Of a DNA stretch of 64,000 bases, positions 19,736-53,283 are shown in pieces. The translations under genes and the position numbers were made by a program. How positions within the stretch are numbered: position 1 is the stretch's first letter; every line of letters begins with the position of its first letter. The notes beneath the pieces are model-generated. The model was not told where the DNA came from, ran no database searches, and worked only from the letters and a program-made list of their open reading frames with translations. The stretch comes from a virus (Duplodnaviria; Caudoviricetes), in the IMG/VR virus record IMGVR_UViG_2751185671_000004, positions 1-64,000 of that record; one strand, given 5' to 3'.

Positions 19736-20034
19736 AAGGTTGCGTTTTCCACTATGATACTCTCATTTAAAATTACTGGAATAAATTTTCATCATCATCT
19801 GCTATTTAAAGACAAGTTAGAGAATCAAGCGTAAATGTACCTGGGCTAACCATCAGCAATAATATAAGAATCAGTGATTAATAGAGCTTCATATAGAGTG
19901 ACTTATATTTTTAATTGAAATTAAGTCCAATTTTTTGGCACATATGTTTTTATAAAAATTCAGTTTTTTATGTATCATTTTTTAAACGATATAAACAATA
20001 TTTGGATTTCAAAATTGATATAAAGAGGTTATAT

Positions 20035-20538
20035 ATGAAGAGTTTCAGTTTAGTTCAAGTAATCATATTATCTTTAATATTATTTGCAAATTACTCTCAC
20101 TCATCGAGCTTTAACGTTGGCCCTGTTGGTGGATTATTAGGTAAGGAGTTTGTTGATAAATTACCGGATAGCCAACGAATATGTGGCATTAACATTCGTT
20201 ATGGCAATAGAATAGATGCAATACAATTAAAAGTATTAGATGATTTTGGCAATACATTTTTTAAAAATAAACATGGAGGGAATAGAGGATCATTAAGTTT
20301 TTTTTCATTAGGACCAACTGAGTATATAAAAAAAATTGAAGGGTTTTATAATAGAAGGAGAAGCAATAGGATATTTGGTTTAAGGTTTCACACAAATTTA
20401 AAAATTTCGCCTTGGTATGGCACTCAAAGTGGTAGGTATTTTGTTTTCGATGCACCTACAGGATATTCTATTCAAGGAATAGGAGGGTATTCAGGCGATG
20501 AGCTGGATGCCTTATCTGCTTTTATAAGAAAAAATTAG
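20035..20538 (+). CDS. Secreted jacalin-like lectin
   Basis: GAGG RBS, signal peptide; GPVGG, IDAIQ, KHGG, EYIKKIEG, L.F.TN..SPWYG, GYSGDELDAL. Confidence 0.8.
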   Translation: MKSFSLVQVIILSLILFANYSHSSSFNVGPVGGLLGKEFVDKLPDSQRICGINIRYGNRIDAIQLKVLDDFGNTFFKNKHGGNRGSLSFFSLGPTEYIKKIEGFYNRRRSNRIFGLRFHTNLKISPWYGTQSGRYFVFDAPTGYSIQGIGGYSGDELDALSAFIRKN

Positions 20539-20721
20539 CTTTGATTTTTTGGAGTTAAGTTATTGTAACGTGGATTAAAACTCGAAGCGCTACTGTTGTT
20601 GGTAATATCTCATCATCATTCTATTTTTGACTGGGACTTACCTTCAAATAGCGCCTATTTCCATTTTGTCAAATGATATATTTCGAATTTTAATCTACGA
20701 CAGTTAAAACTGAAATTTGAC

Positions 20722-21069
20722 TTATTTTACTACCTTTAGATTGCTATCTACAGGCAAACGATAACCGGTGATTATCTGTATTTGATTACAAGCTTGTCTT
20801 TTCGCCTCATTAAGTAAATTGTTACCCCATGGGGTCTCTAAAAGTAACTTCATTTCTAAATCATCATCCAACATTTCATCCAGAACTATTAATAGCCCCC
20901 AGTTCAAGAATGTTATACTCCCAGCTTCATTTCCAGCTAACCATGACTCAAACCTAGCAATATCTCTGCGAACACGCGATGAATCAACATAATGTTCATC
21001 TACTGACCAAATTAGTACTGATTCTTTTTGTAAGTTATTCATAATAAAATTTTTTCTTATAAGTTGCAC
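20722..21069 (-). CDS. Hypothetical protein, probable gene cassette (start probably at the internal Met)
   Basis: ORF directly downstream of the attC at 21154-21213. Confidence 0.5.
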   Translation of the reverse strand: MQLIRKNFIMNNLQKESVLIWSVDEHYVDSSRVRRDIARFESWLAGNEAGSITFLNWGLLIVLDEMLDDDLEMKLLLETPWGNNLLNEAKRQACNQIQIITGYRLPVDSNLKVVK

Positions 21070-21153
21070 TATAACCGAGCAGCATCTATTTTCACATTAC
21101 TACTGCACAAAAATCAAGCTATGGCATATTAGTCTCTACAAAGCGGTTATTCC

Positions 21154-21213
21154 ATGTAACGCCAAGCTAAACCGATTGCGCTCTTTGCGCGTCGGGTTCA
21201 GCTTTTGTTATCT
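21154..21213 (-). other. attC-like integron recombination site
   Basis: Minus strand AGATAAC-AAAAGCTGAACCCGA..TCGGTTTAGCTTGGC-GTTACAT imperfect palindrome that includes the stop codon of the upstream remnant. Confidence 0.7.
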
Positions 21214-21475
21214 TTGTGGTTTTGGACACTCTTTTACTTTTTAAGTGCTATTTTTGATAAATTGTTAACAAACTCATTTGTTATTTTTTTGCATCTGAAG
21301 TGCTTTCCTCTCCTGAGACTAGATCGAAAATTCCCTAGTAAGTTGCACTTTGCCGGCCCATAAAACCTGAACTCTTACCAATAATGAGTAAAGCCGGGAC
21401 AGCAATCTCAACATTATCTCCGGTATATTCAATGGCTATACATAATTTTGGTGAACTTAATTTTTCCAAATGGCT
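21208..21475 (-). pseudogene. Decayed cassette ORF
   Basis: Reading frame ending ..KKVKECPKPQR* in the attC, with an internal stop and a frameshift. Confidence 0.4.
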
Positions 21476-21616
21476 CGCACTGTTAGCCGACATAGCCGCC
21501 GTTAGAAACTTTTAAATTAACAAAGACAGTTTTCGAAACAACAAGTTACTTACTTTCAGTTTACTAACTTATTAAAACAAATAAAGGACAACACTAATGA
21601 TTGTCAACCATCTGAA

Positions 21617-22201
21617 CTAATAGCTAGATATATTCTTTATATATATATCTGTAGAGTAACTTCCTACATAGCCAAAGTTCACATCAGCTCGCACAATAGG
21701 AATATCTGACTTCAAGGTTACCTCTCCAGCTTTTACATTATTAATATAGAGTTCAATCTGATAACCGGTTCGTATTATTTTGATTTTATTCCACTCATAC
21801 AGTATGCCAAAATCACTAAATCTTACGTCCAACATAGTTGTTCGATTCATGGAATAATTTCTTGTAATAAATCTCAAAACATCACCGTTGGAAGGAAAAT
21901 ACAACTTCCATTGAGCTATATCAGATTCGTAGGCTCCAAGGATATCGTTTTTATAGCTAGTCATAGGTTTCACATCAAATGAGATTGTAAAGTCTGACCG
22001 AAACTTCTTCTGAGGCCAACCGGAGAAGATATATCGGTTTTCTGATAGTTTATACTCGCCTTCTTTATCCAATGACATACCAATGATATCTTCAGTTACT
22101 ACTTTAATTCGACTCCCATCCGTGAGATGAAGATCAATTGCATCAGAAAAAGCTGCAGGCGAGTAAATATACATTAAAAAACAAAAAATATACTTAATCA
22201 T
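21617..22201 (-). CDS. Secreted ConA/LamG-like domain protein
   Basis: Signal peptide; DFTISFDVK..WNKIKIIRTG..IELYINN. Confidence 0.6.
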   Translation of the reverse strand: MIKYIFCFLMYIYSPAAFSDAIDLHLTDGSRIKVVTEDIIGMSLDKEGEYKLSENRYIFSGWPQKKFRSDFTISFDVKPMTSYKNDILGAYESDIAQWKLYFPSNGDVLRFITRNYSMNRTTMLDVRFSDFGILYEWNKIKIIRTGYQIELYINNVKAGEVTLKSDIPIVRADVNFGYVGSYSTDIYIKNISSY

Positions 22202-23248
22202 ACTTTCCTCTATTTTTTTATTTTACCCACATCCCATAGACAACTAGGTCAACCGCCAACACAAATAACAACATCTTGTTAGGCGATTTACCCCACTGTA
22301 TTAATCATCTCTAGTAAGCGGACATCCAACATTGAAACTAAATTCTCTATTCATTTTTTCTTGCTGACTGAGACCAAAAATTTCCTAGATCGCGACCAAA
22401 TAAATAGGGCCTCATATAAAAATTACCGACAGAATTTTCCTTACTTAATACAGTGTTATGTATTTTCAAGCAATGATATTTTGAAGAATTCGTCAGCCAT
22501 TTTTTCTGGCTTCATAGTATTAATACATTTACTTTTTAGCTCTCCCATTATTTCCTCATAGAAATTCTCAGCAAAAGATTTTCTGTTATCTAAATTAACT
22601 TTAACGTCTCTCTCCTTTCATAACATCTGAAAAAAAGCAAGAATCCCGATAACTTTTAAGCCAAAAATCAGTTTCTTTGCTAGAAAAATCATCTATAGGC
22701 TGTTTAGCAAAAGACACAATCCCTTAACAATATATTGCATATACATATTAGCGACCAACTCTACAGTATGCATATCAAAGATCGTAAAAGGGAAAAATGG
22801 ATAATAAATACTATATATTTTACTAAAGTTGATTATGAGAATATAGGGTTAGGTAACTATAAATATACAGCCTCCATATATATTTTATTTAATTATAAGA
22901 GTCTAATTTCTCTCATATAAAATCCTGACATCTATCTTCCATGAAAAATTACTTATTCTTTATTGCATGCCAAAAAAAACTCCAGAGTGTCACCTTAGGC
23001 ACCCGAAGGTATAAAAACCTAGATTTAGTAAGAGAAAATTTTATCACTAGTAATTTTTCATAGAATATATTTGAATATTTAGAATATAACTCTGATAAAG
23101 CAGTCGCATTTGTCAAGGATTGTATGATCTAATAGAATAGGTAGCGGATATATATTTACACTTAAAAAAGTTAAAGCATTTTTTTGTAAGGAAGTATTTA
23201 TAATATTCAACAAGGCATCTTATAGGATAATTAGATGAGTGAGCACTT

Positions 23249-24171
23249 ATGAAAGCTATTAGCGTATTTTTCATAATATCTTTTGCAAATATTGCCTTTT
23301 GTACAGATATACGTCTAGGTACATGGAATATTGAAAACCTCAATACAATATCCAAGCGTGGTTTTCCAGAGCTTAAAGGAGGCACTCAATTAAAACCTCG
23401 AACCAAAAGTCAGTTAAATAAAATAGCCAAATACCTTAACCAAGATGTGAATGCAGATGCATTGATATTAACTGAGGTCGGAGCTGAGAATGATAACAGC
23501 TTTAAACAGCTAAAACATATTATGAATCGCCTAAATGGTGATTGGCAATTCCACTTTGGAACTACAGGTGGCAAACAAAGGTTAGTGTTTGCATATAATT
23601 CAAAGAAAATTCAAGTTAAAAAATTTTCGAGCTAGAGGTAGAGAGACATCTAGTCAGAGATAAAGATATTTACGATCGAGATCCGCTTGTCGCCTGGGTT
23701 AGCGTGATCGAAGATGGCAATGAAGTTGAAGATATAATCATCATAGGCCTACACCTCAAAAGTCAACAAAAGTATGTTCATAATCACATGGCAGCAGTAG
23801 CGACACTATTGGGTTTTTTATCGGATAGTGCTTTACGAGAAGCATCTGGATTGCCAGAGGTTAGGAAAGAAAAAGATGTAGTAATTCTTGGAGATTTAAA
23901 TGATTCAGCCCACAAACGACATGGATTTAAATATTTATTTGATTACTTGGAGGGGGTAGATTACGTTCACTTACATCCAGATTCAGGGACATACCCTCTG
24001 ACACGAGTGGGAGGCAGCCAGATTGATCATATTTTTGTGTCCTCCGGTTTGGAAGATATTATTAACGGAGATTCATTCAAGGTGCATTATAAAGCTGGGA
24101 TATCTAATTCAAAATATCGCAAAGATTATTCAGACCATTATCCAGTGACAGTGAACTTGGTTTTTGATTAA
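23249..24171 (+). pseudogene. Secreted endonuclease/exonuclease/phosphatase (EEP) gene with a 1-nt frameshift at the A6 run 23618-23623
   Basis: TWNIENL, LTEV, then in the -1 frame IYDRDPL, HLKS, LGDLN, IDHIF, SDHYPV. Confidence 0.85.
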
Positions 24172-24339
24172 CTAAGATTTAGTAGTCAAATAATATACAT
24201 ATAAATTTTTTTAATGGATATTATTTTTAGTAACTTACGCAAAGTAATATATTTTCACAGAACATTTATCTATAGAATGAAGCTGGGTTTATCTCAAATT
24301 TTTCCGCCAAATATAAATCACTCTGAAAATGAGGTCATT

Positions 24340-25368
24340 ATGAAGGTATTTTTGGTAAACTTATTTCTACTGCTTAGTGCCGCATGTGCTGATGCAAAGG
24401 AGTATATTTTTGATGACAAGTTCGATGGTCGCGGAGGGATAGTGCCTTGGTTTACATATTATTACCCAGATCCAGTTGTCTGTGATTGGCCTGAAAGTCG
24501 TAGAAATTGGGGACTTGATACAACAATTTATGATTCTCCTAATAAGATAGGGGACACACAAGCAATGTCAATAGTTAGCCTTACAGGATGTAAGGTTGGT
24601 GAAATAACATTTGATTTTACCAAATACGAACCGGCAATAGATTTATCAGAATCCTTTGAACTATCATACATATGGTTTCAACAGTCATCACGTTCACCTG
24701 GCTTCTACAATGCAGAGGTCACAGTTTATTACGACAATGGAAAGATAGATAACTTCTTTATGAATCAGCAAACTCAAGTTTCGGGAGAATATTTTACTTT
24801 AGGAAGTTATAACAATATAGAAAAGGTCAGTTTTCATTATGAAGCACCAGATGATTACCAGAGACAAAGACAAATATACGGGTATTTCTATATTGATGGA
24901 GTAAAGCTAACTCAGCCAAACACAGATCCTCCAACTATCGTTATAGACTCTAATGTAGGAAAGGTAGATTTCTTTGTGAATACTTTCGCAATGGAAAATG
25001 CTGGTTACATCGCTCTAGATGGAAGCACAGTACATGTAGATGATTACCCGGAATTAGTATACATTCTTACGAATGGTGACAAATTTGCAAGTTCGGCATC
25101 TTTGCGAGATTGCAGAGGCGAGTTTTTACGTGGTCGTGATATGGGAAGAGGTGTTGATCCTGGCAGAGAAGGAGTACATCAACAAGACCAATTTCGGAAC
25201 CATAATCACACGTTCAATCACTCTGGTTATGCTGGAGTAGGCTCATTCGGTTTTGAGACTGGTACGGGGGCGTTTGTTTATGAAACAAACTATACCGGTG
25301 GGAGTGAAACAAGACCTAGAAACATAGACTTGGTTTGTGCTATTTATCCTGGTAAACGAGCGAAGTAG
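24340..25368 (+). CDS. Signal-peptide protein with C-terminal phage tail-collar domain
   Basis: GAGG RBS, MKVFLVNLFLLLSAACADA; GYIALDG..DYPEL..DCRGEFLRG.D.GRGVD..QDQFRNHNH..ETRPRNI. Confidence 0.75.
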   Translation: MKVFLVNLFLLLSAACADAKEYIFDDKFDGRGGIVPWFTYYYPDPVVCDWPESRRNWGLDTTIYDSPNKIGDTQAMSIVSLTGCKVGEITFDFTKYEPAIDLSESFELSYIWFQQSSRSPGFYNAEVTVYYDNGKIDNFFMNQQTQVSGEYFTLGSYNNIEKVSFHYEAPDDYQRQRQIYGYFYIDGVKLTQPNTDPPTIVIDSNVGKVDFFVNTFAMENAGYIALDGSTVHVDDYPELVYILTNGDKFASSASLRDCRGEFLRGRDMGRGVDPGREGVHQQDQFRNHNHTFNHSGYAGVGSFGFETGTGAFVYETNYTGGSETRPRNIDLVCAIYPGKRAK

Positions 25369-25956
25369 AAATAGAAGCTATATTCAATTAATTATGTTTT
25401 AAGTTATTCTATACATAAGACAGGAATAACCTCTCTCTTAGGTGATAATAGGTTTACACTAGGATACCCCTAACGGACATCAATATTGTTTTTCTTTTTT
25501 GATTAATGGTAGTTGCGTTCAAAAGTCTGCTTCGATAATTAATACCGCTAAGGACTGTAAAGGGCGATTTTTTGACGTTGATATTCAAAAATAATATGAC
25601 GCAGAATAGAAATGTAGCTGACATATAAAGCGATATTAATAAAGGCAAAAAATCGCTCTTTTCTGTCATTGATGTAATAACGTGTAATAGATTTTCTGGG
25701 TTGTAAGGCGGAGTATGCCTTGATGACGGCTCTTCGCCCAGAGTGGTCATTGATGATATGGAGTTAATCCAAGATCAGTAGAGCTATTCTCTTGATCTCA
25801 AAAGTATCAATAGATAATCACCATCTAACCATTTGTTTTTATTGAAAATAATAGACTTAAAGCCATTTAGAGCTTAATTTGATCAAGAGAAGAGTGATAA
25901 GTAGAACAAGTCTATTGATCAAACTGCTATGCACTAATTCAAGAGAGGGTTATTAA

Positions 25957-26901
25957 ATGAGCAGCGCTAAGGAGATGATTAAGCTGAAATCAGTAGTTAC
26001 ATTCTTGATAGGACTAATTGGTGTATTTGCATCAGCTTACTGGATGGAGGCTAGTCAGCCGTCACCAGGTTCACTCACTAATTCCGCGATAAGCTCGTTG
26101 ACTACTCTGTCAATCGCCTTGATGGGTATAGCAATCTTTGGGGTTTTATTGGATAGTAAAAATTGGAGAGAGTATTTTGGGGAGCGCTTGAAGGAAGTGG
26201 TTGTCGAAAATAGTTATTTAAAAACTCTAGATGACTCTGCTTTAAAGCAACTACAAACAAACATCCTAAAAATTCAATTTAAAAATTCTCAAATTGATAA
26301 AGATGGTAGCTTCCTAGAGTATTTTCATCTTCATTTACATAAATTTATTTCGGAGCCGTATAGAGAGGATGTTTCCACAGAAGTCCTCATGAGTCATGTG
26401 GAAAATGGCGAAGGCTACTTTGTGAAAGATAAAGTGAGGTATGTTTGCCGCGCATCGAGAGATAAAATCCAGAATGACGTTAGCTGGAAACCGGACGAAG
26501 AAGAGTTTTTAGAGGTTAAAAGCCTCAAAGTTAAAATACAGTATCCTGCAAACCATGAAAAAGCGGGAGAGGTCATTGATCTTTCAGTTGATCAACGTCA
26601 ACTATCTCAAGGCATAAAAGTATCTTTATCCGACTATGCTTCGATCGATGGACTAGTTGTAATAACAGAAGCTGAATATACAGTGGAGAAAAATAAATTT
26701 CAATATTGGCAAATGGCTCACCCCACTAAGAACTTTGATATAACTATCACATACCCAAAAGAGCTAAAAATACAATTTAAAACCCTGGTTCTCGAAGATG
26801 TCGTAAGTCAAGTGACTGAAAGTGAAGGGTATGTGAAGTTTAGCTATGGTACTTGGGCGCTCCCACAAAGTGGTTTAACTTGGCTAATCAAAGATGCATA
26901 A
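25957..26901 (+). CDS. Two-TM membrane protein of unknown function, gene cassette
   Basis: GAGG RBS, two N-terminal hydrophobic helices, stop codon inside the attC. Confidence 0.7.
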   Translation: MSSAKEMIKLKSVVTFLIGLIGVFASAYWMEASQPSPGSLTNSAISSLTTLSIALMGIAIFGVLLDSKNWREYFGERLKEVVVENSYLKTLDDSALKQLQTNILKIQFKNSQIDKDGSFLEYFHLHLHKFISEPYREDVSTEVLMSHVENGEGYFVKDKVRYVCRASRDKIQNDVSWKPDEEEFLEVKSLKVKIQYPANHEKAGEVIDLSVDQRQLSQGIKVSLSDYASIDGLVVITEAEYTVEKNKFQYWQMAHPTKNFDITITYPKELKIQFKTLVLEDVVSQVTESEGYVKFSYGTWALPQSGLTWLIKDA

Positions 26902-26970
26902 CAAAGCAAGCCAAAATCGCGCCTTCGGCTCTGGATTCGCTATCGCTCGCTTTTGCTTGCGGCGTTATGC
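26896..26970 (+). other. attC integron recombination site
   Basis: GCATAAC-AAAGCAAGCCAAA...TTTTGCTTGCGGC-GTTATGC; the two core ends are exact complements. Confidence 0.8.
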
Positions 26971-26986
26971 GTAAAAGAGATCGAGA

Positions 26987-27313
26987 ATGATCCTACTAAT
27001 TGAACAATTCTGGCCGATAATCTTATCTGCTTTTGGTGGGATAGTTGCTATTTCCAAGTTTTATCTTGATTGGCTTAGAATTAAAGAGCCAAAACTCAAG
27101 CTGGCAGAAGCAAAGAAAAATAATGACCGAGACTCTCAAAGCATAGTAATAGCCACCACTGAAGAAATCGAAAAGTACGGGTTTCAAAAATTCAGATCAA
27201 ATAGCGTTACTTCTATTTTGTTGGTCTGTTTCGTTTCCTTCGTTTTATTAGTTATCAACATTATCAAATTTCTGATAACGCGCCAGCCGATAACATTAAA
27301 TCAGAACCCTTAG
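26987..27313 (+). CDS. Membrane protein, gene cassette (possibly truncated)
   Basis: ATG 16 nt after the attC core; two TM segments. Confidence 0.55.
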   Translation: MILLIEQFWPIILSAFGGIVAISKFYLDWLRIKEPKLKLAEAKKNNDRDSQSIVIATTEEIEKYGFQKFRSNSVTSILLVCFVSFVLLVINIIKFLITRQPITLNQNP

Positions 27314-27372
27314 ATTTTGTTGTAAATATCCTTAGCTCAGATCTAGATTGGGGTTATTGGTCGGGGAGTGTA

Positions 27373-27618
27373 GTGAAAGAACAATTTGAAAAACTGCTTT
27401 CAGAGAATCAAACTCATATAGTGGTGGAAGAAGAAATACCGGTACTGATTAGTTTCACAGTAATTGATCAATATCACTATGAGGCCGAGTATATACTTAA
27501 TTCATCTGAATTAATCATCCAAGTCAAATATTTGTTGATTTGGGGGCCAAGCAGGTATTGGTTTACGATAGTGAACATGCAATCGCATACCAAAGCGTTA
27601 CAGAGGACAGGCCGGTGA
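27373..27618 (+). pseudogene. Cassette remnant reading through a mutated attC
   Basis: GCATACCAAAGCGTTACAGAGGAC at about 27584 resembles an attC start with TAA changed to TAC. Confidence 0.35.
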
Positions 27619-28192
27619 ACTCGACGTTAAAATTATACGAAGGTCTGCTTAGTGGAAGAAGCACGTGTTCATTATTCTTAACTGAGTGTCCGCTTGAGAC
27701 AAAAAACAATGCTAAACGCCAATTATAGATCCTAATACGTCCAATACTCACTCGTATTGGACGTTATAGCTATTCACAGAACGATTATAAAAAGAAAGAT
27801 GATGGCTGACACTAAAAGCATTATTTTGTCAGCGGCACTTTATTTCTATGATGGTTCTATACTGTACATACAATTGATATTCAAAACCAACCTGACGTCG
27901 TATAAAACTCAAACAGACACACAAAATGATAGAATTAGTGACGACGATTCGACAATAGTAGACATTGGAATGGGGTTATTAATACGTCAGAAGGCCGCCC
28001 TAAGAAGATATTTGTATACTTTGCCAACATAAGCTTGAATTCATCCCTTCAGAGATAACATACGACCCAAAGTGTACATTAATTAAAATAAACTGTCCGT
28101 GGAATTCGGTATGCCGGCTGATTGATATTTCAGGTGAATGAGCTGGAGCCTTGGAAAAAATATAAAGCGAAATAATAAATAGAGAATACTTT

Positions 28193-31100
28193 ATGAGCGA
28201 GGCAGGAATACGCTCCAACCGCGGTGATAGTTATCAAACCCTGGTTGCTTTTGATTGGGCATTGACTATTTTGTCTGACTCAGAGTATCAGTGGCTGGAA
28301 GTGGATTCGACCACCTATAAGGTGGATGATGTTGTAATTGGCAAGTCTGATGGTTCCTTGGTCTGCTGCCAGTGTAAAAAGAATCAGGCTAATTTCAGGG
28401 CTTGGTCCATAGCTGACCTCGGAGATGAGCTGGTCAAGGCCTTTGAGATGCTTGTTGAGACTTCAGATGCCAAAGTCCGTTTCTATTCGCGCAGTGATTT
28501 TGGCTCCATCGCCAAATTGCGTGAGTTCAGTACTCTCTATAGTAACGAGGCTGAATATCTTACAAATCTTACCAAAGAGCACGCAAAGACAGATAGTGAA
28601 TTAGCCACTCGCATTGCAGACCATACTCCGGGTCTCACCACCTATGAATTTCTCAGTCGAACTTCCTTTGAAGTCAGTCAGGACTTTGATCGCATGGAGA
28701 TGTTGTTGCATGAGCGCTTGCGCCAAATGGCAAGTAACTCAGATGCCGTATACAACGCTCTTTGGGTAAGGCTGGATAAAATTGGAGGGCGTATGGAAGT
28801 TAGCGACCTGACGATCTCCAGCCAGCACCGTCTAACCAAAGACGATCTTAAAGAGATTTTCCAAAGAGCGGGAGCAATGCTGGTTCCTATGATATCCGCG
28901 GCACATGTGCGCGCATCATTTGCCAGTACTTCGGCTATAGGTAGGGCTTGGCATCGAGATATTTCTGGTCAACGTATTGAGAGCGAGGTTGTAAATGAGC
29001 TGCTGTCTGCTATCGATGCCGGGGAACGAGCCATCTTACTGACGGGGCTTCCGGGGTCAGGAAAAACCTGTGTAATGCTTAGCATGCAAGAGATGCTTGA
29101 GCGGCGTATGCAAGCCCGAGGGGACTTGATTCCACTTTTCATTCAGTCAAGTGAATTCGCTGATATGGAAACGGCGAAGGAGCGTCAGGCACAAGGGTTG
29201 TCAGAGCAATGGGTAGAGCAGGCTGCTCGCCTGGCGGAAGAGACGCATGTGGTCACAGTCATTGATTCCCTGGATGTCCTGTCCATTGCTCGTGAGCACA
29301 ACGTCTTGACGTACTTCCTGGCGCAAATAGATAAATTACTGCTGATCCCCAACGTTACTGTTGTCACAGCTTGCCGCGACTTTGACCGCAAGTATGATCG
29401 ACGGATTGCCTCCCGGCAGTGGGACTGCGAATTGCAGTGTTTGCCATTGGATTGGGATACCAAAATTGTACCGTTGCTCGACACACTCGGAATTGATTCG
29501 ACGACTATCGATCAAGTTACGCACGAATTGATCCGTACCCCCCGCGAACTTGCCTTGTTTGTTGAACTCGCCCAGCGCGAAGGCAGCTTCAAAGTGGTAG
29601 CCAGCCAAGCGCTGGCACAGCGCTACCTCAAGACCATAGTGCAAGATGAACCTACATTGGGTGATGCTGCGATGCAGGCAATCGAAACTGTCGCGGATGA
29701 CATGTTGAAGTCTCGCAGCCTGTCAATTCCGCATCAGCGTTTCAATGCTTCACCGGACATCCAACGGCGACTGAATAGTCTCAATGTGCTGCAAGATACC
29801 CATGATGGGAGATTGACGTTTGGTCATCAGACTTTACTGGACGTATTGGTAATAAGTAGCGCCATACGTCAAGGGATCTCTCTCAATAATTTTATTCAAG
29901 GTCTGTCGCCCGTACCCTTTGTAAGGCCCAGCATACGCAGCTTCGTCGCCCAGTTGGCAGCAGGAGATCGGCGAGATTTCCGAAAGCAACTGAGAACAGT
30001 ATTGACAGGCAATGCTGCTTTTCATATCCGCCGCCTGGTTGCCGAATCGTTTGCACAGCAGGTACCTCAGGATGACGACTGGCCGCTGATACGGGATTTG
30101 AGAAACCAGCATCGTGAAGTATTTCAGGTAATCTACACCCAAGCTTCATTTGTAGAGTGGCACCACTTTTGGTTCTCTCATTTAGTTCCAGAGTTGAGGA
30201 ACTTGTATGATTCTGAGGGACTAACGATTCATGCGCATAGAGTTGCACGGTGGTGTAAAGAAGACACTGCGGGAGTGTTGGAGTTTTGGATAGATTTGTT
30301 GGCAATTGATTGGCTGGATAGCACAAGAGTTGCGGAGCAACTGATCTTTTCATTATCCGAATTTGAAACAGAAAATTTATCGCTGGCTGTGCCCTTGCTA
30401 GAGCGATTGCTCTGCATGCCTACGCTAAAACACCGGCATAGTTTTCTTGGGCGCACCGTTGCAAACTGCATAAAAGCTGGAATAGTCGATGACAAGCTCT
30501 TATGGCAGTACATTACTAGTGAAATAGGTGAAGAAGACGTAACAAAATTTCATTTCGATCATAAGTTGCATTGTAAGCCTCATAACTTTGGGGAAAAAAA
30601 CGATGATTTCTTGACACAAAGAATGGTCGAATCTACTGCCTTACTTGACTTGGCGCTGGAAGAAGTTGAGAGGTGGAGTCAAATCAAGTCCGCTCAATAT
30701 GGAGAAATTAGAGTAGGTTATCGATCTGGATTTCTTAATGAAACGTCATACCATGACGTTCACTCTAAGGATGATATTCATCATGTAGATAGTGAGCGGG
30801 TCCTGATGGGTGCAATCGAGGCCGCGATCCTTAATCATGCGCAAGAAAATTCTGATTGGTGGCAAAACAACAGAGAGCGTCTTTGCTTTAACCACGAAGG
30901 CGCGCTGTGTTACTTCGCAGTCCTCGCCCTTACAAATTCACCTATTCCGAACCTTGATGTGATCGAGCGTCTGTTGTGTGACAGAAACTTGCTGGAATTC
31001 GAGCTTTCTTTTGAGTTGGGTGAATTGATTCAGGTGGCATTTATATATCTTGATAAAGCCGCGCAAGATGCGATTATGGAGATGCTACAAACCATATGGG

Positions 31101-32767
31101 AAGAGCATGCAGAGGATAAAGATTCTCGACTCTGGGTATTGAAAAAAAGATCTGAGTATATATCTGCCATTCCTTGTTATCTGCGTTCAGAAAATATACA
31201 GGCGATTTTAGATGACTGCGGAAAAGTAGATGGCACATTTATTCGTCAGCCATACATTGGTATACGCGGTGGCATAGTGGCACCTCCATTTTCATATGAG
31301 GTATTTCTCGAAGCTAGTAATGATGGCGTGATTGACTTGTTAGCACATTATGCAGGGTATATTCGTGATTTCGATGAGTTTGTGGTCGGCGGGCAGAGGG
31401 AAGTCGGTCGGCAGCTGCGCGAAGCCTCTTCTCGAAATCCATCGCGCTTCCTAAATATACTGTCATCACGATGGAAAGATATATCGGGAGACTTTAGTGA
31501 TGAGATAATGGATGGAGTTGCCAGCTATCTCGCATATCGCCATGGCAACCTGCAAACAAATAGTTCTTGGAAGCCAATTGCGGAGCACGATGCTCCTCAA
31601 TTGGCTAATCAGATCCTTGATGAGCTTGATAGACACTCTTCCCATTGGCGACTAAGTCATTCCGCTGCAAATGCTTTGGAGTCATGCGCACATGTTATTC
31701 AGAGTGCCCAGGCTGCAGATCGGTTGGTATTTTTGGCATTAGGCTATTCCAGTTATAGAGAGGAGGCCAGCTATAAGGAAGAGTCGGGCGATTGGATTAA
31801 TAGGGGTATCAACATGACGAGCGGAAAAGTTACTGAAGCTCTGATGATATTAGCCTGCAACTTTTATAAGCGCAATATTGCACTGCCCGAATTACTGCCG
31901 AAAGCACTATATCTGTTTTCCGGCAACGAACATCCTGCAATTCGCGCACTGATTATGCGACGCTTGCCTTTTCTCCAAAGTAAAGATCCAGGATTGGGGT
32001 GGGCGTTGTTTTATCGTGCAACAGAGGACGCAAGAGGGCTTTGGAAGGAGGCAGAACGCTGTCTTTATTATGGCTATCGCGGCAATTTCGATAAGGTTAA
32101 GTCTGCTCTAGATTGTATCTATAGAAGTGGCAATGAGAGAGATTCAGAAACCTGGGGGCGGATTTCAGCTTTAGCTGCCCTAAGTGGGCATATTGATTTT
32201 GTCAGCCTACTTGGCGATTTGAATTCACTTAATGTCGCTGGAGCCTGGAGAGGGTCCGCAAGCGTTTGGACTCACACTGAGAATATCAAGCAGCATCGTT
32301 CACAGTGCTTGTCAGGCATCGAGGCAGGACTGAATTCAGGCAATTCTCTTGCAATAGAAGTCGCTAACAAAATGAGTGCGTTATTTAGTAATGACACGTC
32401 AACGATTATCATACCAATACACTTGATCAAACTTTACCTCAGCGTACTTGAAAGTGACCCGAAAGACAAAAGCCATCGCATACCTAGGTTTAATGAATGG
32501 CTCAACGCTACTGCGCAGCAAGATCCCGAAACAGCACTTGCCGCGCTGGAGATGTATTTGTCCTATATTAGTCGTGATCAATCCTATTTTTACGATCATG
32601 GTGATCATCTTGTTCAGCTGGTGACTCGCCTGTTTGCAGAAGCGGAAGAGAGAGAAGAGTCGGACAACGGTGAAATGCTATGTCGTGTGGTGTCAGTGCA
32701 GGATTTATTATTGTCATTGGGGGGAAGCTCTATCCTGGATTGGCTGAAAGCTGCAGAGAGACAATAG
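28193..32767 (+). CDS. Avs/AVAST-like anti-phage STAND NTPase with N-terminal PD-(D/E)xK nuclease
   Basis: RGDSYQ..VDDV..QCK nuclease; GLPGSGKT, VIDSLD, TACR, P..L, FGHQTLLD; long helical C-terminus; visibly higher GC than its flanks. Confidence 0.75.
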   Translation: MSEAGIRSNRGDSYQTLVAFDWALTILSDSEYQWLEVDSTTYKVDDVVIGKSDGSLVCCQCKKNQANFRAWSIADLGDELVKAFEMLVETSDAKVRFYSRSDFGSIAKLREFSTLYSNEAEYLTNLTKEHAKTDSELATRIADHTPGLTTYEFLSRTSFEVSQDFDRMEMLLHERLRQMASNSDAVYNALWVRLDKIGGRMEVSDLTISSQHRLTKDDLKEIFQRAGAMLVPMISAAHVRASFASTSAIGRAWHRDISGQRIESEVVNELLSAIDAGERAILLTGLPGSGKTCVMLSMQEMLERRMQARGDLIPLFIQSSEFADMETAKERQAQGLSEQWVEQAARLAEETHVVTVIDSLDVLSIAREHNVLTYFLAQIDKLLLIPNVTVVTACRDFDRKYDRRIASRQWDCELQCLPLDWDTKIVPLLDTLGIDSTTIDQVTHELIRTPRELALFVELAQREGSFKVVASQALAQRYLKTIVQDEPTLGDAAMQAIETVADDMLKSRSLSIPHQRFNASPDIQRRLNSLNVLQDTHDGRLTFGHQTLLDVLVISSAIRQGISLNNFIQGLSPVPFVRPSIRSFVAQLAAGDRRDFRKQLRTVLTGNAAFHIRRLVAESFAQQVPQDDDWPLIRDLRNQHREVFQVIYTQASFVEWHHFWFSHLVPELRNLYDSEGLTIHAHRVARWCKEDTAGVLEFWIDLLAIDWLDSTRVAEQLIFSLSEFETENLSLAVPLLERLLCMPTLKHRHSFLGRTVANCIKAGIVDDKLLWQYITSEIGEEDVTKFHFDHKLHCKPHNFGEKNDDFLTQRMVESTALLDLALEEVERWSQIKSAQYGEIRVGYRSGFLNETSYHDVHSKDDIHHVDSERVLMGAIEAAILNHAQENSDWWQNNRERLCFNHEGALCYFAVLALTNSPIPNLDVIERLLCDRNLLEFELSFELGELIQVAFIYLDKAAQDAIMEMLQTIWEEHAEDKDSRLWVLKKRSEYISAIPCYLRSENIQAILDDCGKVDGTFIRQPYIGIRGGIVAPPFSYEVFLEASNDGVIDLLAHYAGYIRDFDEFVVGGQREVGRQLREASSRNPSRFLNILSSRWKDISGDFSDEIMDGVASYLAYRHGNLQTNSSWKPIAEHDAPQLANQILDELDRHSSHWRLSHSAANALESCAHVIQSAQAADRLVFLALGYSSYREEASYKEESGDWINRGINMTSGKVTEALMILACNFYKRNIALPELLPKALYLFSGNEHPAIRALIMRRLPFLQSKDPGLGWALFYRATEDARGLWKEAERCLYYGYRGNFDKVKSALDCIYRSGNERDSETWGRISALAALSGHIDFVSLLGDLNSLNVAGAWRGSASVWTHTENIKQHRSQCLSGIEAGLNSGNSLAIEVANKMSALFSNDTSTIIIPIHLIKLYLSVLESDPKDKSHRIPRFNEWLNATAQQDPETALAALEMYLSYISRDQSYFYDHGDHLVQLVTRLFAEAEEREESDNGEMLCRVVSVQDLLLSLGGSSILDWLKAAERQ

Positions 32768-39634: not shown

Positions 39635-39730
39635 AATACAGGCGGAGAACCATTACCTCAATACCATAAATAGCGGGTAAAACTATTTTATACCAAGATA
39701 ATGGTTTTATATTTTACTATTGTATTTACA

Positions 39731-40739: not shown

Positions 40740-40970
40740 ATGGATTTGGAAGTTGACAAGGCCGTTCAAATATTGGGTGGACAACGAGCAGCGGCTGAAA
40801 AACTAGGTGTGACAGACTCAGCAATATCTAGATGGGTTAAAAGTGGATGCATTCCACCTAGCAGAGTGTGGGAAGTTTACCTAGCTGTTGGTGATCAAAA
40901 AGCAAGCAGCGCTTTCTTTTCAATTGAGAATGCACTTAGGCAAGCATATGAAAAATGTAAAAAAACGTGA
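40740..40970 (+). CDS. Cro/YdaS-like HTH protein 1
   Basis: GGQRAAAEKLGVTDSAISRWVKSGCIP. Confidence 0.8.
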   Translation: MDLEVDKAVQILGGQRAAAEKLGVTDSAISRWVKSGCIPPSRVWEVYLAVGDQKASSAFFSIENALRQAYEKCKKT

Positions 40971-41490: not shown

Positions 41491-41538
41491 TACGATAATC
41501 ACTGAGTTTTTACAGAGAACTACACACGGAGAATTTAT

Positions 41539-42027
41539 ATGCCAGCCGACTGTACAGAAACCCATTCCTTTACGGATCAACTTTATGAAGGGATGCAACA
41601 TGATTATACCAAAAGACTCGTCAATAAGATAATGACGCAGATCCTTCACGTATATAAAGACGATTTTTTTATGTTACATTTATATGTGCTTAAGACAGGA
41701 AAAAAAACGTTTAGTTGTCAGCTTTCTGTCGAAGCGTATCAAGGAGAGACTTTACTCCCTGTAGAGATAGGTAATGATTCCGCTCAGTATATATCGACGC
41801 TCTGTACTATTTTACACGCCTACAATGGTTACTATGCTGATATCTTTCAATGGAACACAATGACAATCACTCTACACTTTGAAGGTAGATATAAGATTCA
41901 TAGAGCATTTGATACCGCCCTAGAAAAACAACATGGTTGTCGTAATAGCAAGATATTGAGCAACATCGTCCAATTAAAAAATAGTAGAAGTTTGACAGCG
42001 AGTAAAACAAATGGCAGTCCACTATAG
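41539..42027 (+). CDS. Immunity-like protein (DUF600/YezG-like)
   Basis: QWNTMTITLHFEGRYKIHRAFD pattern. Confidence 0.45.
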   Translation: MPADCTETHSFTDQLYEGMQHDYTKRLVNKIMTQILHVYKDDFFMLHLYVLKTGKKTFSCQLSVEAYQGETLLPVEIGNDSAQYISTLCTILHAYNGYYADIFQWNTMTITLHFEGRYKIHRAFDTALEKQHGCRNSKILSNIVQLKNSRSLTASKTNGSPL

Positions 42028-42310
42028 CATTGCACATCACTCTAAAACCCTAACACCTGGAATTAAAAAGGTCTTACGTATTTTTGGTAATCAAGCGGCG
42101 TTAGCAAAAGCGATGAATGTCTCGGTGAGTGCTGTCGCACGATGGGTAAAATCGGGGTATATCCCTTGCGATAAAGTATGGGAAGTGATGCTGCTTGTGG
42201 AAGGCAAAAAAACCTATGCCGGTGAGACAGTGTCTATTAACGAGCTATTGGAAGAAGCTTACAACAAGCACATGGAAAGACGAGGACTACAAGAAAAAAT
42301 GCCAACATAA
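42011..42310 (+). CDS. Cro/YdaS-like HTH protein 2
   Basis: FGNQAALAKAMNVSVSAVARWVKSGYIP..VWEV; paralog of protein 1. Confidence 0.8.
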   Translation: MAVHYSIAHHSKTLTPGIKKVLRIFGNQAALAKAMNVSVSAVARWVKSGYIPCDKVWEVMLLVEGKKTYAGETVSINELLEEAYNKHMERRGLQEKMPT

Positions 42311-42392
42311 CATAAAAAATAGCACACTAGTTTAAAGAATCTAACACTTTTATGCGCTAGCCATAGCGTAGGGTCATGTATTTTTTTTCATT

Positions 42393-42887
42393 ATGTTCTA
42401 TAGCATCCACCAGGATAGGCCAACTCCTATCCAATATTCGCTGCGTAGTGACTGGCTACTCGGCCTTAGTATTATAACATGGGAGAGCGATATGTCACAG
42501 CATGCACATATTACATTTTCATCCGCTAACAAAGGCGTAATCAATGCCCCGTTACCGGATATTATTGTCCACCAGCATTCGATGTATCTCAGTCTTCATG
42601 CCTACCCTTGTATCGCCAGTGCGCTTGAGAAATACGGGACGTTTATTCGTGTCTATGCAGGCGACCATATTGGCTATGTGTTCTGCCCTTCCCTATTTCT
42701 TAAACGGGCCACAAAAAAAACGCTCATTTCTACCACTAAAAATACCTTGATCTTTAAAGATATCCAAGAAAAAACATCCGCGCTTGTCTGTCACCAGCGA
42801 TTTAAAAACATTATTGAAACAATGCCGTTAACCGGGCTGAGATTTTGTCGAGAGCAAACACAGCAATGGTCCAGAGTTGCCAACTGA
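42393..42887 (+). CDS. Imm11-like immunity protein (divergent, shortened)
   Basis: PLPDI..MYLS..LEKYGTFI..IFK..FKNII..LTGLRF, homologous to the next ORF. Confidence 0.45.
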   Translation: MFYSIHQDRPTPIQYSLRSDWLLGLSIITWESDMSQHAHITFSSANKGVINAPLPDIIVHQHSMYLSLHAYPCIASALEKYGTFIRVYAGDHIGYVFCPSLFLKRATKKTLISTTKNTLIFKDIQEKTSALVCHQRFKNIIETMPLTGLRFCREQTQQWSRVAN

Positions 42888-42923
42888 CCGGATTGATATT
42901 ATTTCCATAAGGACATCATTCAC

Positions 42924-43514
42924 ATGATTTACAGAATTCATCCTAACTTTTATCGTTATGCTACCTATCAATTGGATAGCGACGATCTGTTGAAAAAGTT
43001 AGGCCGTTACAGTGTTTTTGGTATCGAGATTAATGCCGTACATTATACCCATCAATGGCAACCCATTAAGTTCCGTTTTCATAATTCTCTTGAGGAAGGG
43101 CCACTGCTGCCCATTCCCGATCTTATCGTCGACTACGGGTGTATGCTGTTGAGTGAAAAGTCTTACCGTATTTTTTACGCAATGCTGGCAGAGCATGGAG
43201 AATTCTTACCCATCTATTCCGGCGATACACGAGCTTATCTTTATAACCCGTTAAAAATTGCTGAACAATTTAATGGGCTAGATACAAAATACTCTACAAA
43301 AAATGAATATGACTACGTTACCACACTGCATTTTATTGAGGAGAAGCTGACACATTTACCCCTGTTTAAATGTGAATACGATAACTATCTCGGGATCTAT
43401 TGCCGACACGATTTTAGAGACACGTTTATGCGTCATAACTTGCGCGGCATTGTTTTTGAAGAAAACATTGCGTTGTCATTTCCAGCAGACCCGGCAGTCC
43501 TGGCCGAAGACTAA
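42924..43514 (+). CDS. Imm11-like immunity protein
   Basis: PIPDL..LLSEK..GEFLP..LFK..IYC..F...NLRGIVF. Confidence 0.55.
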   Translation: MIYRIHPNFYRYATYQLDSDDLLKKLGRYSVFGIEINAVHYTHQWQPIKFRFHNSLEEGPLLPIPDLIVDYGCMLLSEKSYRIFYAMLAEHGEFLPIYSGDTRAYLYNPLKIAEQFNGLDTKYSTKNEYDYVTTLHFIEEKLTHLPLFKCEYDNYLGIYCRHDFRDTFMRHNLRGIVFEENIALSFPADPAVLAED

Positions 43515-52169: not shown

Positions 52170-52465
52170 TGTCAGTAAATGTTAAGTTATCGATACCGTT
52201 TATTTTGTACTTAATAGCTTCATTTTTTAGTATTGGCAATTTATTTGCAATTGTACTCATGCATTGGAATTTTATCATTTCGGGTAAGGGGCTAGGTTCA
52301 TTTACTATCCTTTGGTTTATAGGATACTTTATCTTGTCGGTTGTCCTATGGGGAATAGCTTTTCTAATGGAAAGAAACTGGCAATGGACTATAGTTTTTT
52401 GGATTAGCGTTCTAGTTCCGATATTATTATTTACTTTTTTACCAGTAAGATTCTATATAGAATAG
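52169..52465 (+). CDS. Putative cognate immunity protein (3 TM)
   Basis: TAATG stop/start overlap with the toxin; hydrophobic 98 aa. Confidence 0.7.
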   Translation: MSVNVKLSIPFILYLIASFFSIGNLFAIVLMHWNFIISGKGLGSFTILWFIGYFILSVVLWGIAFLMERNWQWTIVFWISVLVPILLFTFLPVRFYIE

Positions 52466-52580
52466 TATGCCCCATTTAATATTTGACCCGGAGTATATAC
52501 GTGAATGTTGTAACATTGCTAAATAGTTCTTAGTTACATAAATCGAAATATACTCCTACTCAATTATTTTTACTCCAAAA

Positions 52581-53279
52581 ATGAAAAGAAAGAAATTAAT
52601 TCTTTTGCCCGGACTAGATGGGACGGGCAAATTGTTTAATGAGTTTTTAAATTATGCTGTAGATGTTGAAGTTATAGCTATTAGTTATCCCTACAACAAA
52701 ATACTATCATTTAGTCAGTACATTAAATTTATAGAATCAAGATTACCAAAAGACTCGGAAATCTTCTTACTCGCTGAATCCTTTTCAGGCCCATTAGCTG
52801 TTAATATTTTACTTAATAAGCAAATTAATATTTCTAGAGTTATATTCTGTGCGTCTTTTTCTGTATCTCCGTTTATCTATTTACTGAAGGCATTAAACTA
52901 TTATAGAAACATACTTCCAAACCCACATAATATACCGGACTCTCTAATTAAGCTATTCTGTGTTAACGGTGCTGAGCATTTAGTCAAAGAAGTTAAACAA
53001 GCTATACGATGTGTTGATCCGAAAGTTTTATTAAGTCGAGTAGCTCTACTATCAAAATTCGAAAAGAAAAAAATATTTATTGATAGTGATATAAGCCATG
53101 TTAAAGCATGTTATCTCATGGGGAAAAAAGACCGGTTGGTTTCAAGAAAATATGCTTTAAAGCTTAGTAAGTTTTTTTCTGATTTTGATATTTATGAAAT
53201 TAATGGCCCCCATTTTTTACTACAAAGCAACCCGTATGAATGCTGGAAATCAATCGAGTCCTTCATAAGTGATAATTGA
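52581..53279 (+). CDS. Alpha/beta hydrolase
   Basis: LLPGLDGTG, AESFSG, KKDRLV, GPHFLL. Confidence 0.85.
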   Translation: MKRKKLILLPGLDGTGKLFNEFLNYAVDVEVIAISYPYNKILSFSQYIKFIESRLPKDSEIFLLAESFSGPLAVNILLNKQINISRVIFCASFSVSPFIYLLKALNYYRNILPNPHNIPDSLIKLFCVNGAEHLVKEVKQAIRCVDPKVLLSRVALLSKFEKKKIFIDSDISHVKACYLMGKKDRLVSRKYALKLSKFFSDFDIYEINGPHFLLQSNPYECWKSIESFISDN

Positions 53280-53283
53280 TTTC

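Follow-up and report, generated by a model that had tools for sequence, protein, structure and literature searches.

The window analysed here is a stretch of 64,000 nucleotides (positions 1 to 64,000 of IMG/VR virus record IMGVR_UViG_2751185671_000004) from the chromosome, contig C1 of 6.88 Mb, of a free-standing 7.1-Mb marine gammaproteobacterium that has a type III secretion system. Its left part holds early and replication genes and an integration operon (Table 1). At the right are lysis genes and a contractile tail module (gpJ, gpI, fibre, sheath, tube, chaperone, tape measure, gpU and gpD) that goes on, past the window, to genes for baseplate, lambda-type head and terminase (C1:1804716-1818352). 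Between the two parts, at 19736-53283, lie some 33 kb of cargo in which Pfam, NCBIfam and PADLOC searches found no housekeeping genes, as an earlier note on this DNA had said. The same note described a minus-strand order of tail, lysozyme, cargo, recombinase, replication and terminase; the order stands, but there is no terminase in the window and the recombinase operon is on the plus strand. No family match was obtained for a 348-aa ORF at 2399-3445 or for about ten further ORFs in 19736-36782, and NCBIfam and PADLOC added almost nothing for the orphan cargo ORFs. A 94-aa candidate PAAR ORF between gpV and gpW had no Pfam match, and nor did the 234-aa and 124-aa ORFs beside it.

Table 1. Features of the window (units 2 and 3 are neighbouring phage-derived units, see text)
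Feature	Position	Strand	Basis or remark
Early and replication module, unit 2	433..16883	-	Pfam; replication part 4132-16883
DUF3489 small-gene cassette	left end of window, within 433..16883	-	Pfam
ParB-N6 methylase	4132-5388	-	Pfam
Primase/helicase	8561-10756	-	Pfam
Intein-containing SF2 helicase	11172-13664	-	Pfam
DUF6362, DUF6511 and AAA_24 genes	within 433..16883	-	Pfam
Integration operon, unit 2 (DUF2924, large serine recombinase, small subunit)	17452..19735	+	Domain searches
Large serine recombinase	17950-19308	+	Resolvase and Recombinase domains
P-side (recombinase-side) cargo, unit 2	19736..36782	mixed	17 kb
Jacalin lectin	19915-20538	+	Unit 2 cargo
Conserved 115-aa gene	20722-21069	-	Unit 2 cargo
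Broken EEP-family nuclease	23249-24171	+	Unit 2 cargo
Avs-like STAND NTPase, LmuA/Cap4-like N-terminus	28193-32767	+	Unit 2 cargo
142-aa gene and DUF6036 nucleotidyltransferase (NTase pair)	35453-36474	-	Unit 2 cargo
P arm of attP-like junction	36783..36857	+	Pseudo T-arm imitating tmRNA 3' end
Core common to all junctions	36858..36907	+	50 nt; CCTCCACCAA first, then terminator hairpin
Conserved non-coding P' arm and trailer side of CRISPR array	36908..37407	+	Conserved to about 37330
Cas-less type I-F CRISPR mini-array, unit 3	37408..38050	-	9 repeats of 28 nt, 8 spacers of 32 nt
302-aa protein with C-terminal Fis-type HTH (+) and convergent alpha/beta hydrolase (-)	38726..40426	mixed	Pfam
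Cro-like HTH genes and four small genes	40686..43514	+	Pfam P22_Cro/YdaS; HTH genes at 40686-40970 and 42011-42310
SpvB/FG-GAP/RHS polymorphic toxin, 2824 aa	43695-52169	+	Pfam SpvB, RHS_repeat, FG-GAP_3, ChitinaseA_N
Two small genes downstream of RHS toxin, putative immunity	52169-52465, 52581-53279	+	Position
Lysis genes: GH24 lysozyme and holin	53284..54191	-	Pfam
P2-type contractile tail module, unit 3	54198..64000	-	Pfam

The att-like site that the earlier note had seen in the middle of the interval proved to be a 50-nt core that recurs with 100% identity at three further chromosomal places, among which is the 3' end of the tmRNA gene (ssrA). Perfect matches are at C1:1995502-1995453 (ssrA 3' end), C1:1923308-1923259 and C1:1844963-1844914, and at C1:1771562-1771517 the identity extends over 46 nt; the core thus has four occurrences, spaced 72-78 kb apart, and the one in the window is 150 kb from ssrA. 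ARAGORN places the tmRNA gene at C1:1995494-1995878, so that its 3' end is itself one core copy. The native ssrA of relatives in the genus matches the core up to CCTCCACCAA only, about 10 nt. Alignments show that the P arm is kept in junctions 1/2, 2/3 and 3/4 and on the circular 71.7-kb contig C3, and that genuine tmRNA sequence takes its place at attL. The P' arm can be aligned across the five copies, that immediately after ssrA included, and related P' sequence follows ssrA in four relatives from other genera. In structure the junction at 36858-36907 is that of an intact attP (P-O-P').

Two other readings of the site were rejected. A permissive Rfam search of 36400-37400 gave no tmRNA match, the weak chance matches falling on the terminator only, and the site is a short mimic and not a fragment of a tmRNA gene. 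An attP directly after the recombinase operon had been considered on account of the homology break at ~19640-19740; the four-copy alignment shows divergence there inside the 3' end of the gene for the 144-aa small-subunit protein, and no common core. We propose recombination by the large serine recombinase between attP and the final ~10 nt of ssrA (CCTCCACCAA), the phage providing a replacement terminator for the gene. The specificity of the recombinase for ssrA is a prediction from homology and context.

Behind ssrA the chromosome carries a chain of phage-derived units, related to one another and at least four in number (units 1-4, of 72, 78, 73 and 50 kb), about 274 kb in total or ~4% of the genome. 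A full ORF comparison showed that the maps of the units are colinear. Reading from ssrA, each unit runs from the P' arm through variable cargo, a Cro-like module, a giant RHS-type toxin, lysis and tail to baseplate, head, terminase, a small-gene cassette and replication, and then through the DUF2924, serine recombinase and small-subunit genes and a second stretch of variable cargo to the P arm. The recombinase has four genomic copies, 94-97% identical and in one shared orientation, and no tyrosine integrase (PF00589) was found in the array or on C3. Units 1 and 3 and contig C3 have copies of the unit 2 replication module with 72-100% amino acid identity. C3 is a fifth, plasmid-like relative of the units, with an att site like those of the chromosomal units and cargo on either side. 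It shares 8.5 kb with unit 1 at 99.99% identity, a repeat of a size that could confuse an assembler. The probability that the array is an artefact, with one prophage and its episomal copies wrongly laid out as repeats, is nevertheless close to nil, given that shared modules differ by 5-25% in nucleotide sequence among the units, that each unit has 10-40 kb of unique cargo, and that the genome is in four contigs with 100% completeness.

Up to position 36857 the window contains the last part of the defective unit 2; from 36908 to 64000 it contains the first part of unit 3. We are confident that the interval 19736-53283 is the joint of units 2 and 3 in a head-to-tail chain of temperate phages at the 3' end of ssrA. 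The earlier note had offered a junction between tandem prophages as one of two possibilities, and this is what the repeats and unit maps of the chromosome show. Ordinary chromosome between two complete and distinct prophages, which it had named as the outcome that would go against it, does not describe the locus: the two flanks are not both complete prophages of distinct kinds, and the interval is no syntenic chromosome. In 30 related genomes neither half of it was found, save for short repeats and those of CRISPR type.

No attR could be found at the distal end of the chain. The last att-like site, C1:1721760-1721803, has diverged, and phage remnants extend past it; C1:1650001-1690000 and C1:1710000-1722500 are mostly strain-specific. 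A search for the empty site in relatives of the genus showed a conserved ssrA side, with the DNA downstream of ssrA variable and mapping elsewhere in the genome studied here.

Is the 33-kb cargo nonetheless a single module of one prophage? It is not; two neighbouring copies meet there. The complete virion module is in unit 3 only, where the sole terminase and head module adjoins the unit 3 replication module and the tail module is unique in the genome and colinear with those of relatives. Units 1, 2 and 4 and C3 are without the head, tail and lysis set, and unit 2 has an RTX adhesin and an RHS protein in its place. For a single prophage with a contiguous WO-style module, in which the site at 36858 would be a relic or an internal recombination site, one can cite the uninterrupted order of lysis, cargo, recombinase and replication in the window, which is also the order expected of the circular form (C3). 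Such a prophage is extremely improbable: the replication module beside the window's recombinase borders adhesin and RHS genes and not head genes, which adjoin another replication copy; the ssrA junction and the site at 36858 match at 100% identity; and single-copy relatives begin at ssrA with lysis-side cargo and end after recombinase-side cargo. Nor is the contig a phage circle, as the earlier note had thought it might be; it is the chromosome, and the head genes, which the note had wanted checked as a link between the two ends of the window, lie with the terminase past its right end only, beside a different copy of the replication module.

Four single-copy relatives at ssrA were found in other genera (Aliikangiella marina, Pseudomaricurvus albidus and two MAGs). 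In each, 5-10 kb of variable DNA directly after ssrA is followed by the backbone from lysis to recombinase and then by a second variable stretch; variable DNA is confined to the gap between ssrA and lysozyme and to the region after the small-subunit gene. Backbone homology begins exactly at the lysis genes, which are 61-68% identical in amino acids to those of unit 3, and both ends of the interval, 19736 and 53283, are homology break points between related phages. In equivalent places these relatives carry restriction-type and metal-efflux genes. Their attR is a 10-11-nt match only, or could not be identified, in three of the four. Large accessory regions of variable content flank attP in each unit, and a circular genome has them as a single block from the lysis genes to the recombinase, as is seen for C3 and the single-copy relatives. 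To this extent the WO-style accessory module of the earlier note stands, for the cargo flanking attP is contiguous in the circular form; in the chromosome the interval is a tandem junction.

The recombinase-side 17 kb could also be an independent, integrase-less island at the ssrA site, each unit then consisting of a phage plus an island. The content of this region is wholly different from one unit to the next and on C3, homology among the units and among the foreign relatives ends exactly after the small-subunit gene, and integrase-less islands mobilised with their neighbours at ssrA are known in Dehalococcoides (PMC3146451). We regard an island as very unlikely, however. No second att-like core separates the recombinase operon from the 50-nt site, the cargo varies while the adjoining P arm is conserved, and on circular C3 the cargo region is contiguous with the att site. 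Furthermore, the prophages of a MAG and of Pseudomaricurvus have in common a 24-kb block, unbroken and 98% identical, which starts upstream of DUF2924 and takes in the recombinase and 19 kb of cargo. Two single-copy relatives share another 19.3 kb after the small-subunit gene, which in Pseudomaricurvus terminates at a CCACCA-plus-terminator remnant.

Taking the interval as the joint of two units, the DNA adjacent to attP would tolerate insertions, making both flanks hot spots for accessory genes that occupy about 40% of unit 3. Carriage of additional genes on either side of att is already known from temperate phages. A unit of 73 kb is large for a lambda-type capsid gene set, which may count against packaging of the cargo. 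The chain could have arisen by repeated integration, or by homologous recombination between incoming genomes and a resident copy; large serine integrases do not normally recombine attP with attL or attR, so that the route of its formation is uncertain. When viral contigs were searched for phage circles, the recombinase being the query, a single distant match (37%) was obtained.

The locus offers a well-mapped case of a serine-recombinase phage in which ~40% of the genome would be exchangeable cargo flanking attP, and as this cargo ranges over defence genes, a CRISPR mini-array and polymorphic toxins, it bears on the spread of defence and toxin genes by phages. It also holds a lesson for reading such regions: what looks like a single large island can be genes of separate units with differing prospects of mobility. 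The earlier note had put host-interaction proteins, anti-phage defence, a CRISPR array and a polymorphic toxin on one phage; the jacalin and Avs-like NTPase genes are in defective unit 2, the CRISPR array and RHS gene in complete unit 3. The Avs-like protein has an LmuA-like N-terminus (PADLOC, E 3e-8) and a Pfam AAA match above the cut-off, with AAA_16 and NACHT matches under theirs; no Avs model matched, and the C-terminal 1100 aa are without an assigned domain.

On the unit 3 side the lysis-side cargo comprises 16 kb; the recombinase-side cargo of that unit is at C1:1771563-1785105. The genes at 38726-40426 have no second copy in the genome and are variable P'-side cargo of this unit. The Cro-like module is kept in all units and on C3, always with the giant toxin gene downstream of it. 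The SpvB/RHS protein of the earlier note was confirmed (SpvB 42.5 bits, RHS_repeat 24.8 bits, plus FG-GAP). With its SpvB domain, RHS repeats and C-terminal tip, and with putative immunity genes downstream, it fits an RHS/Tc-BC-like polymorphic toxin; its C-terminal tip has a weak, sub-threshold hydrolase match only, and units 1 and 4 have different RHS proteins in the equivalent position.

Among known phages Acidithiobacillus phage AcaML1 (JX507079; Tapia et al. 2012; PMC3826726) is the closest, and phage WO is only distantly related. AcaML1 can be induced and has the tmRNA gene as its integration site, with direct repeats of 10 nt. Its recombinase (Gp3) is the closest known, with 53% amino acid identity over 97% of the protein, and the operon is alike (DUF2924-like, recombinase, small subunit), the flanking genes being homologous to those for Gp4 and Gp2 (E 2e-31 and 1e-13). 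The order of modules is also alike: recombinase, replication, lambda-type head, P2-type tail, lysozyme and ~10 kb of cargo. AcaML1 is, however, a single-copy element of 59 kb, whereas the units here measure 72-78 kb in a chain of at least four, and its recombinase operon is ~0.3 kb from the genome ends (att), whereas 13-19 kb of cargo separate recombinase and attP here. Insertion is of the AcaML1 type, with attL at the tmRNA 3' end and the core again at each junction; a full head, tail and lysis set like that of AcaML1 is found in unit 3 only.

Phage WO (proposed family Symbioviridae; PMC9203015) was compared by protein-level searches, which gave 50-51% amino acid identity for terminase and 35-38% for recombinase; at ~50% amino acid identity, nucleotide homology to the prophage WO core is unlikely. 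WO has the same set of modules (serine recombinase, replication, head, baseplate, tail and lysis) and likewise an accessory region beside its lysis/tail end, ~40% of the genome, that includes an SpvB/RHS toxin. In contrast to WO, the lysozyme here is GH24 and cargo flanks attP on both sides. Ankyrin and patatin genes, markers of the WO eukaryotic association module (EAM), had no match in the window. Since cargo lies on both sides of attP and is of restriction and metal-efflux type in relatives, we take it to be accessory DNA of a general kind and not one directed specifically at eukaryotes. That the EAM is specific to WO, as has been published, is left standing by the chain, which adds a distant, free-living relative to the comparison with phage WO. 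Eukaryote-leaning domains are limited to jacalin and, beyond the window, a RING gene of the head module. That a WO-related marine phage lineage shuttles eukaryote-directed weapons (Tc-like SpvB/RHS toxin, jacalin lectin and RING E3-like gene) around attP, in a host that has a type III secretion system, is, in our view, unlikely. If true, such a shuttle would be a functional counterpart of the Wolbachia phage EAM outside Wolbachia, and the 274-kb chain at ssrA would be the host's means to accumulate eukaryote-directed modules.

Tandem elements at ssrA are known from the Dehalococcoides ssrA-GIs, which have the serine recombinase DsiB (PMC3146451), and from tandem prophages of M. abscessus (PMC9934374). 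As in the present chain, elements lie head-to-tail behind ssrA, are separated by repeats of the ssrA 3' end and have a serine recombinase as integrase, and some members are defective and may travel with their neighbours. The chain differs from that of Dehalococcoides in its paralogous units of 50-78 kb, whereas no single Dehalococcoides strain has duplicate islands; in a recombinase of AcaML1/WO and not CcrB-like type; and in internal junctions that are fully attP-like.

The CRISPR array reported by the earlier note is real: its repeats span 37408-37915 with a period of 60 nt, beside a leader at ~37916-38050 that is common to other units, and eight of the nine reach the gathering score of Rfam CRISPR-DR4. 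No cas domain was found among the window ORFs. Two host arrays are made up of this same repeat, and one of these, with 50 repeats, is next to Cas6f (C1:3198541-3199182); the host is thus predicted to supply compatible Cas protein, as checked for Cas6f. The window's spacers had no match in the genome, and an IMG/VR search with the two leader-proximal ones gave no exact match. In unit 1, on the other hand, spacer 8 of the sister array perfectly matches the helicase gene of a resident lambdoid prophage, with a CC PAM, so that array and target coexist in one cell. The mini-array may feed crRNAs to the host's type I-F Cas proteins and so direct an attack on rival mobile elements. Virus-borne mini-CRISPR arrays without cas genes (PMC6858448) are similar in having a leader and host-type repeats on an element that lacks cas genes; those are archaeal and have 1-2 spacers, whereas the arrays here are of bacterial type I-F with 8-14 spacers.

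The cargo at window 19736-53283 (hereafter the interval) had been explained in the earlier note as either a WO-style accessory module of one phage or a junction between tandem prophages. The att-like site that it placed in the middle was confirmed. A non-coding stretch of ~800 nt (window 36549-37363) is kept in all copies of the phage-derived unit, and alignment shows that the copy nearest C1:1995500 (C1 is the 6.88-Mb chromosome) departs from the others upstream and is a genuine tmRNA gene. ARAGORN places this gene, ssrA, at C1:1995494-1995878 with the tag ANDADYEGYRLQA; it found no tRNA in the window. The ssrA 3' end carries a 50-nt core, CCTCCACCAATAGATAAAAGCCAACCCCTATCAGGTTGGCTTTTTTTATG, to which the mid-interval site is 100% identical. 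The internal copies have no real ssrA sequence before the core but a common pseudo T-arm of ~75 nt. Because it stands where real ssrA would, the internal junctions have the structure of an intact attP, P-O-P' (phage arms around the core), and the ssrA copy that of attL, B-O-P' (B being the bacterial arm). In genus relatives ssrA is identical to the host's only as far as CCTCCACCAA and diverges thereafter, so that attB and attP have ~10 nt in common.

Core repeats at ssrA and along C1 split the window (C1:1817821-1881820, reverse strand) between units 2 and 3 of a head-to-tail series in which unit 1 is nearest ssrA. Unit 2 closes with window 1-36857, which holds its replication genes, its recombinase and 17 kb of cargo on the recombinase side; unit 3 opens with window 36908-64000, which holds a CRISPR mini-array, the Cro module, the RHS toxin and the lysis and tail genes. 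Since the split falls at 36858-36907, the interval is a junction between tandem units that has the att site midway, and not a single module of an integrated phage; the one-module alternative holds for the circular form only, not for the form integrated in the chromosome.

Features of the window and copies of the attachment core (window coordinates unless marked C1 or C3)
Feature	Position	Strand	Details
P2-type tail module	64000 down to 54198	minus	baseplate J and I, fibre, sheath, tube, chaperone, tape measure, gpU, gpD (Pfam)
Holin and GH24 lysozyme	53284-54191		after tail module (Pfam)
Replication module	4132-16883		ParB-methylase, primase/helicase, intein-bearing helicase, AAA_24 (Pfam)
Recombinase operon	to 19735	plus	DUF2924 protein, large serine recombinase (17950-19308), 144-aa protein
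Jacalin lectin	in 19736-53283
Two adjacent ORFs	23249-24171		128 and 155 aa; match N- and C-terminal parts of EEP-family membrane/extracellular nucleases
NTPase, 1524 aa	in interval		LmuA/Cap4-like N-terminus, AAA/NACHT-like centre
DUF6036 nucleotidyltransferase pair	in interval
Type I-F CRISPR array	in interval		9 repeats, 60-nt period; Rfam CRISPR-DR4
Fis-type-HTH protein and alpha/beta hydrolase	in interval
Two Cro-like genes	in interval		with small partner genes
SpvB/FG-GAP/RHS toxin	in interval		2824 aa
Core	C1:1995502-1995453		50 nt, 100%; ssrA 3' end
Core	C1:1923308-1923259		50 nt, 100%
Core	C1:1844963-1844914 = 36858-36907		50 nt, 100%
Core	C1:1771562-1771517		100% over 46 nt
Core	C3; C1:1721787-1721760		partial and diverged

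Genes in the window were assigned by Pfam scans of all larger ORFs. These mostly bear out the proposed order of tail, lysozyme, cargo, recombinase and replication, but no terminase was found among the larger ORFs of the window (it lies outside) and the recombinase operon is on the plus strand. As the earlier note had stated, the interval proved free of housekeeping genes. The ORF pair is probably a single EEP-type nuclease gene split by a frameshift or stop, and the 1524-aa NTPase is read as a candidate Avs-like defence protein. Short sequences of 70-145 nt (window ~25784-25933 and 26894-26969) recur at several places in the host genome and in several related genomes at ≤93% identity, and resemble small dispersed repeats or MITE-like elements lying within the cargo. 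In the early region, pairs of 50-61-nt intergenic motifs (80-82% identity; window 1689-1749/3767-3827 and 6063-6112/6952-7001) lie upstream of small genes and may be promoters or operators that these genes have in common. The SF2 helicase (window 11172-13664) has a Hint and LAGLIDADG homing-endonuclease intein near its N-terminus that is missing from the unit 1 copy (564 aa) and from four foreign relatives.

The whole genome is 7.11 Mb in four contigs and has three further recombinase copies (94-97% identity): two on the chromosome, 72 and 77 kb off in the same orientation, and one on C3. Nucleotide and protein comparisons show a constant order in every copy: replication module, recombinase operon, Cro-like module, giant RHS-type gene. 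Unit lengths are 72.2, 78.3, 73.4 and 49.8 kb, a chain of ~274 kb, and phage remnants continue past its last att-like site. Only unit 3 has a full virion module. The window's tail module is the sole copy in the genome, with just lysozyme/holin and gpD fragments elsewhere. The earlier note had asked whether the contig is circular and whether head genes join the two window ends. The contig is the chromosome, and head genes lie only past the right end (C1:1804716-1818352), where baseplate, head and terminase genes (gpA terminase, lambda-type portal, S49 protease, capsid E, gpV, gpW) lead directly into a replication-module copy other than the window's. No head genes occur past the left end; where the virion module would be, unit 2 (C1:1886951-1909979) has an adhesin-like protein of 3548 aa (RTX/TSP3/cadherin/PKD) and an RHS protein of 3675 aa whose N-terminal domain is a matrixin protease. 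Outside the window, between its head protease and major capsid genes, unit 3 has a RING-finger gene (zf-RING_2; 124 aa; C1:1811105-1811479), seemingly without counterpart in the four foreign relatives (tblastn map).

C3 (71672 bases) is circular, its end bases being adjacent in the homologous unit 1, with which it shares an 8.5-kb stretch at 99.99% identity. It carries replication genes, recombinase, att site and Cro module; where virion genes would be expected it has a porin, chemoreceptor, IS element, NYN, DUF1800/DUF1501, BLUF sensor, oxidoreductase and metabolic genes. C3 is read as a plasmid-like derivative of the phage.

Recombinase homologues (65% identity) occur in Aliikangiella marina, Pseudomaricurvus albidus, a Cellvibrionaceae MAG and a Gammaproteobacteria MAG. 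All four have a tmRNA gene on the same contig, 45-50 kb from the recombinase, and are colinear with unit 3: ssrA, 5-10 kb of variable DNA, lysozyme, tail, head, terminase, replication, recombinase operon. Their homology runs from the lysozyme to just past the small-subunit gene, which are the limits of the interval. Two of the four have another 19.3 kb in common beyond the small-subunit gene; the Pseudomaricurvus stretch stops at a remnant that ends in CCACCA and has its own terminator, giving a prophage of ~66 kb. The ssrA-side cargo is a methylase/PD-(D/E)XK pair, the recombinase-side cargo copper/silver efflux systems and a P-type ATPase. As these relatives too have cargo on both sides, variable accessory DNA flanking attP characterises the lineage, and this DNA is not specifically eukaryote-directed in content. 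The backbones (~45 kb) are 92-98% identical in nucleotides among themselves, which points to a spread that was unusually wide or very recent. The four genomes are assigned to different genera or families, each prophage behind a different ssrA sequence.

The array of units and C3 contain no tyrosine integrase. The nearest characterised recombinase (53% identity) is that of Acidithiobacillus phage AcaML1, which is inducible and sits in a tmRNA gene with 10-nt repeats (PMC3826726). AcaML1 has the identical module order, ~10 kb of cargo past the lysozyme and homologues of both recombinase-flanking genes, although its operon adjoins att whereas 13-19 kb of cargo intervenes here. From the lack of a tyrosine integrase and the AcaML1 homology, tmRNA-gene site and flanking genes, we infer that integration at ssrA is the work of the serine recombinase.

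The module set equals that of WO, and identities to WO proteins (terminase 50-51%, recombinase 35-38%) indicate a distant relative of WO-like phages. The Eukaryotic Association Module (EAM), stated to be so far unique to WO, is defined by ankyrin, patatin and eukaryote-like genes (PMC9203015). None of its hallmark families was found here, so the cargo is not classed as an EAM; the likeness is only the general one of a large att-adjacent accessory region. A PAAR domain was not detected in the one ORF tested.

Internal P-O-P' junctions would arise if an incoming genome recombined homologously with a resident copy, and equally if the integrase inserted it into attL or attR; work on tandem prophages considers both (PMC9934374). 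Dehalococcoides has tandem serine-recombinase islands at ssrA (PMC3146451). The earlier observation was largely right. The system is of already known kinds; what is notable is the chain size, the recombinase-attP distance and how large a part of the genome is cargo.

The unit 3 mini-array has the repeat of the host's type I-F system, which occurs in two long host arrays, one adjoining Cas6f. No target was found for its spacers in the host genome or, for two of them, in IMG/VR. Unit 1 has a sister array of 15 repeats at the equivalent position (C1:1994032-1994899), whose spacer 8 is a perfect match, next to a CC PAM, to the gene for a DnaB-type helicase in a lambdoid prophage at 3.03 Mb. This fits the proposal that virus-borne mini-arrays are used against rival elements (PMC6858448), though the target coexists in the cell. 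In the host array at C1:3199316-3202285, spacers 18 and 31 perfectly match resident prophage-like regions, each with a CC PAM, and spacer 19 matches with three mismatches, also with a CC PAM. These self-targets and that of unit 1 spacer 8 lie at C1:3030460-3033479 and C1:2845710-2848355; either interference is inactive or the cell has anti-CRISPRs.
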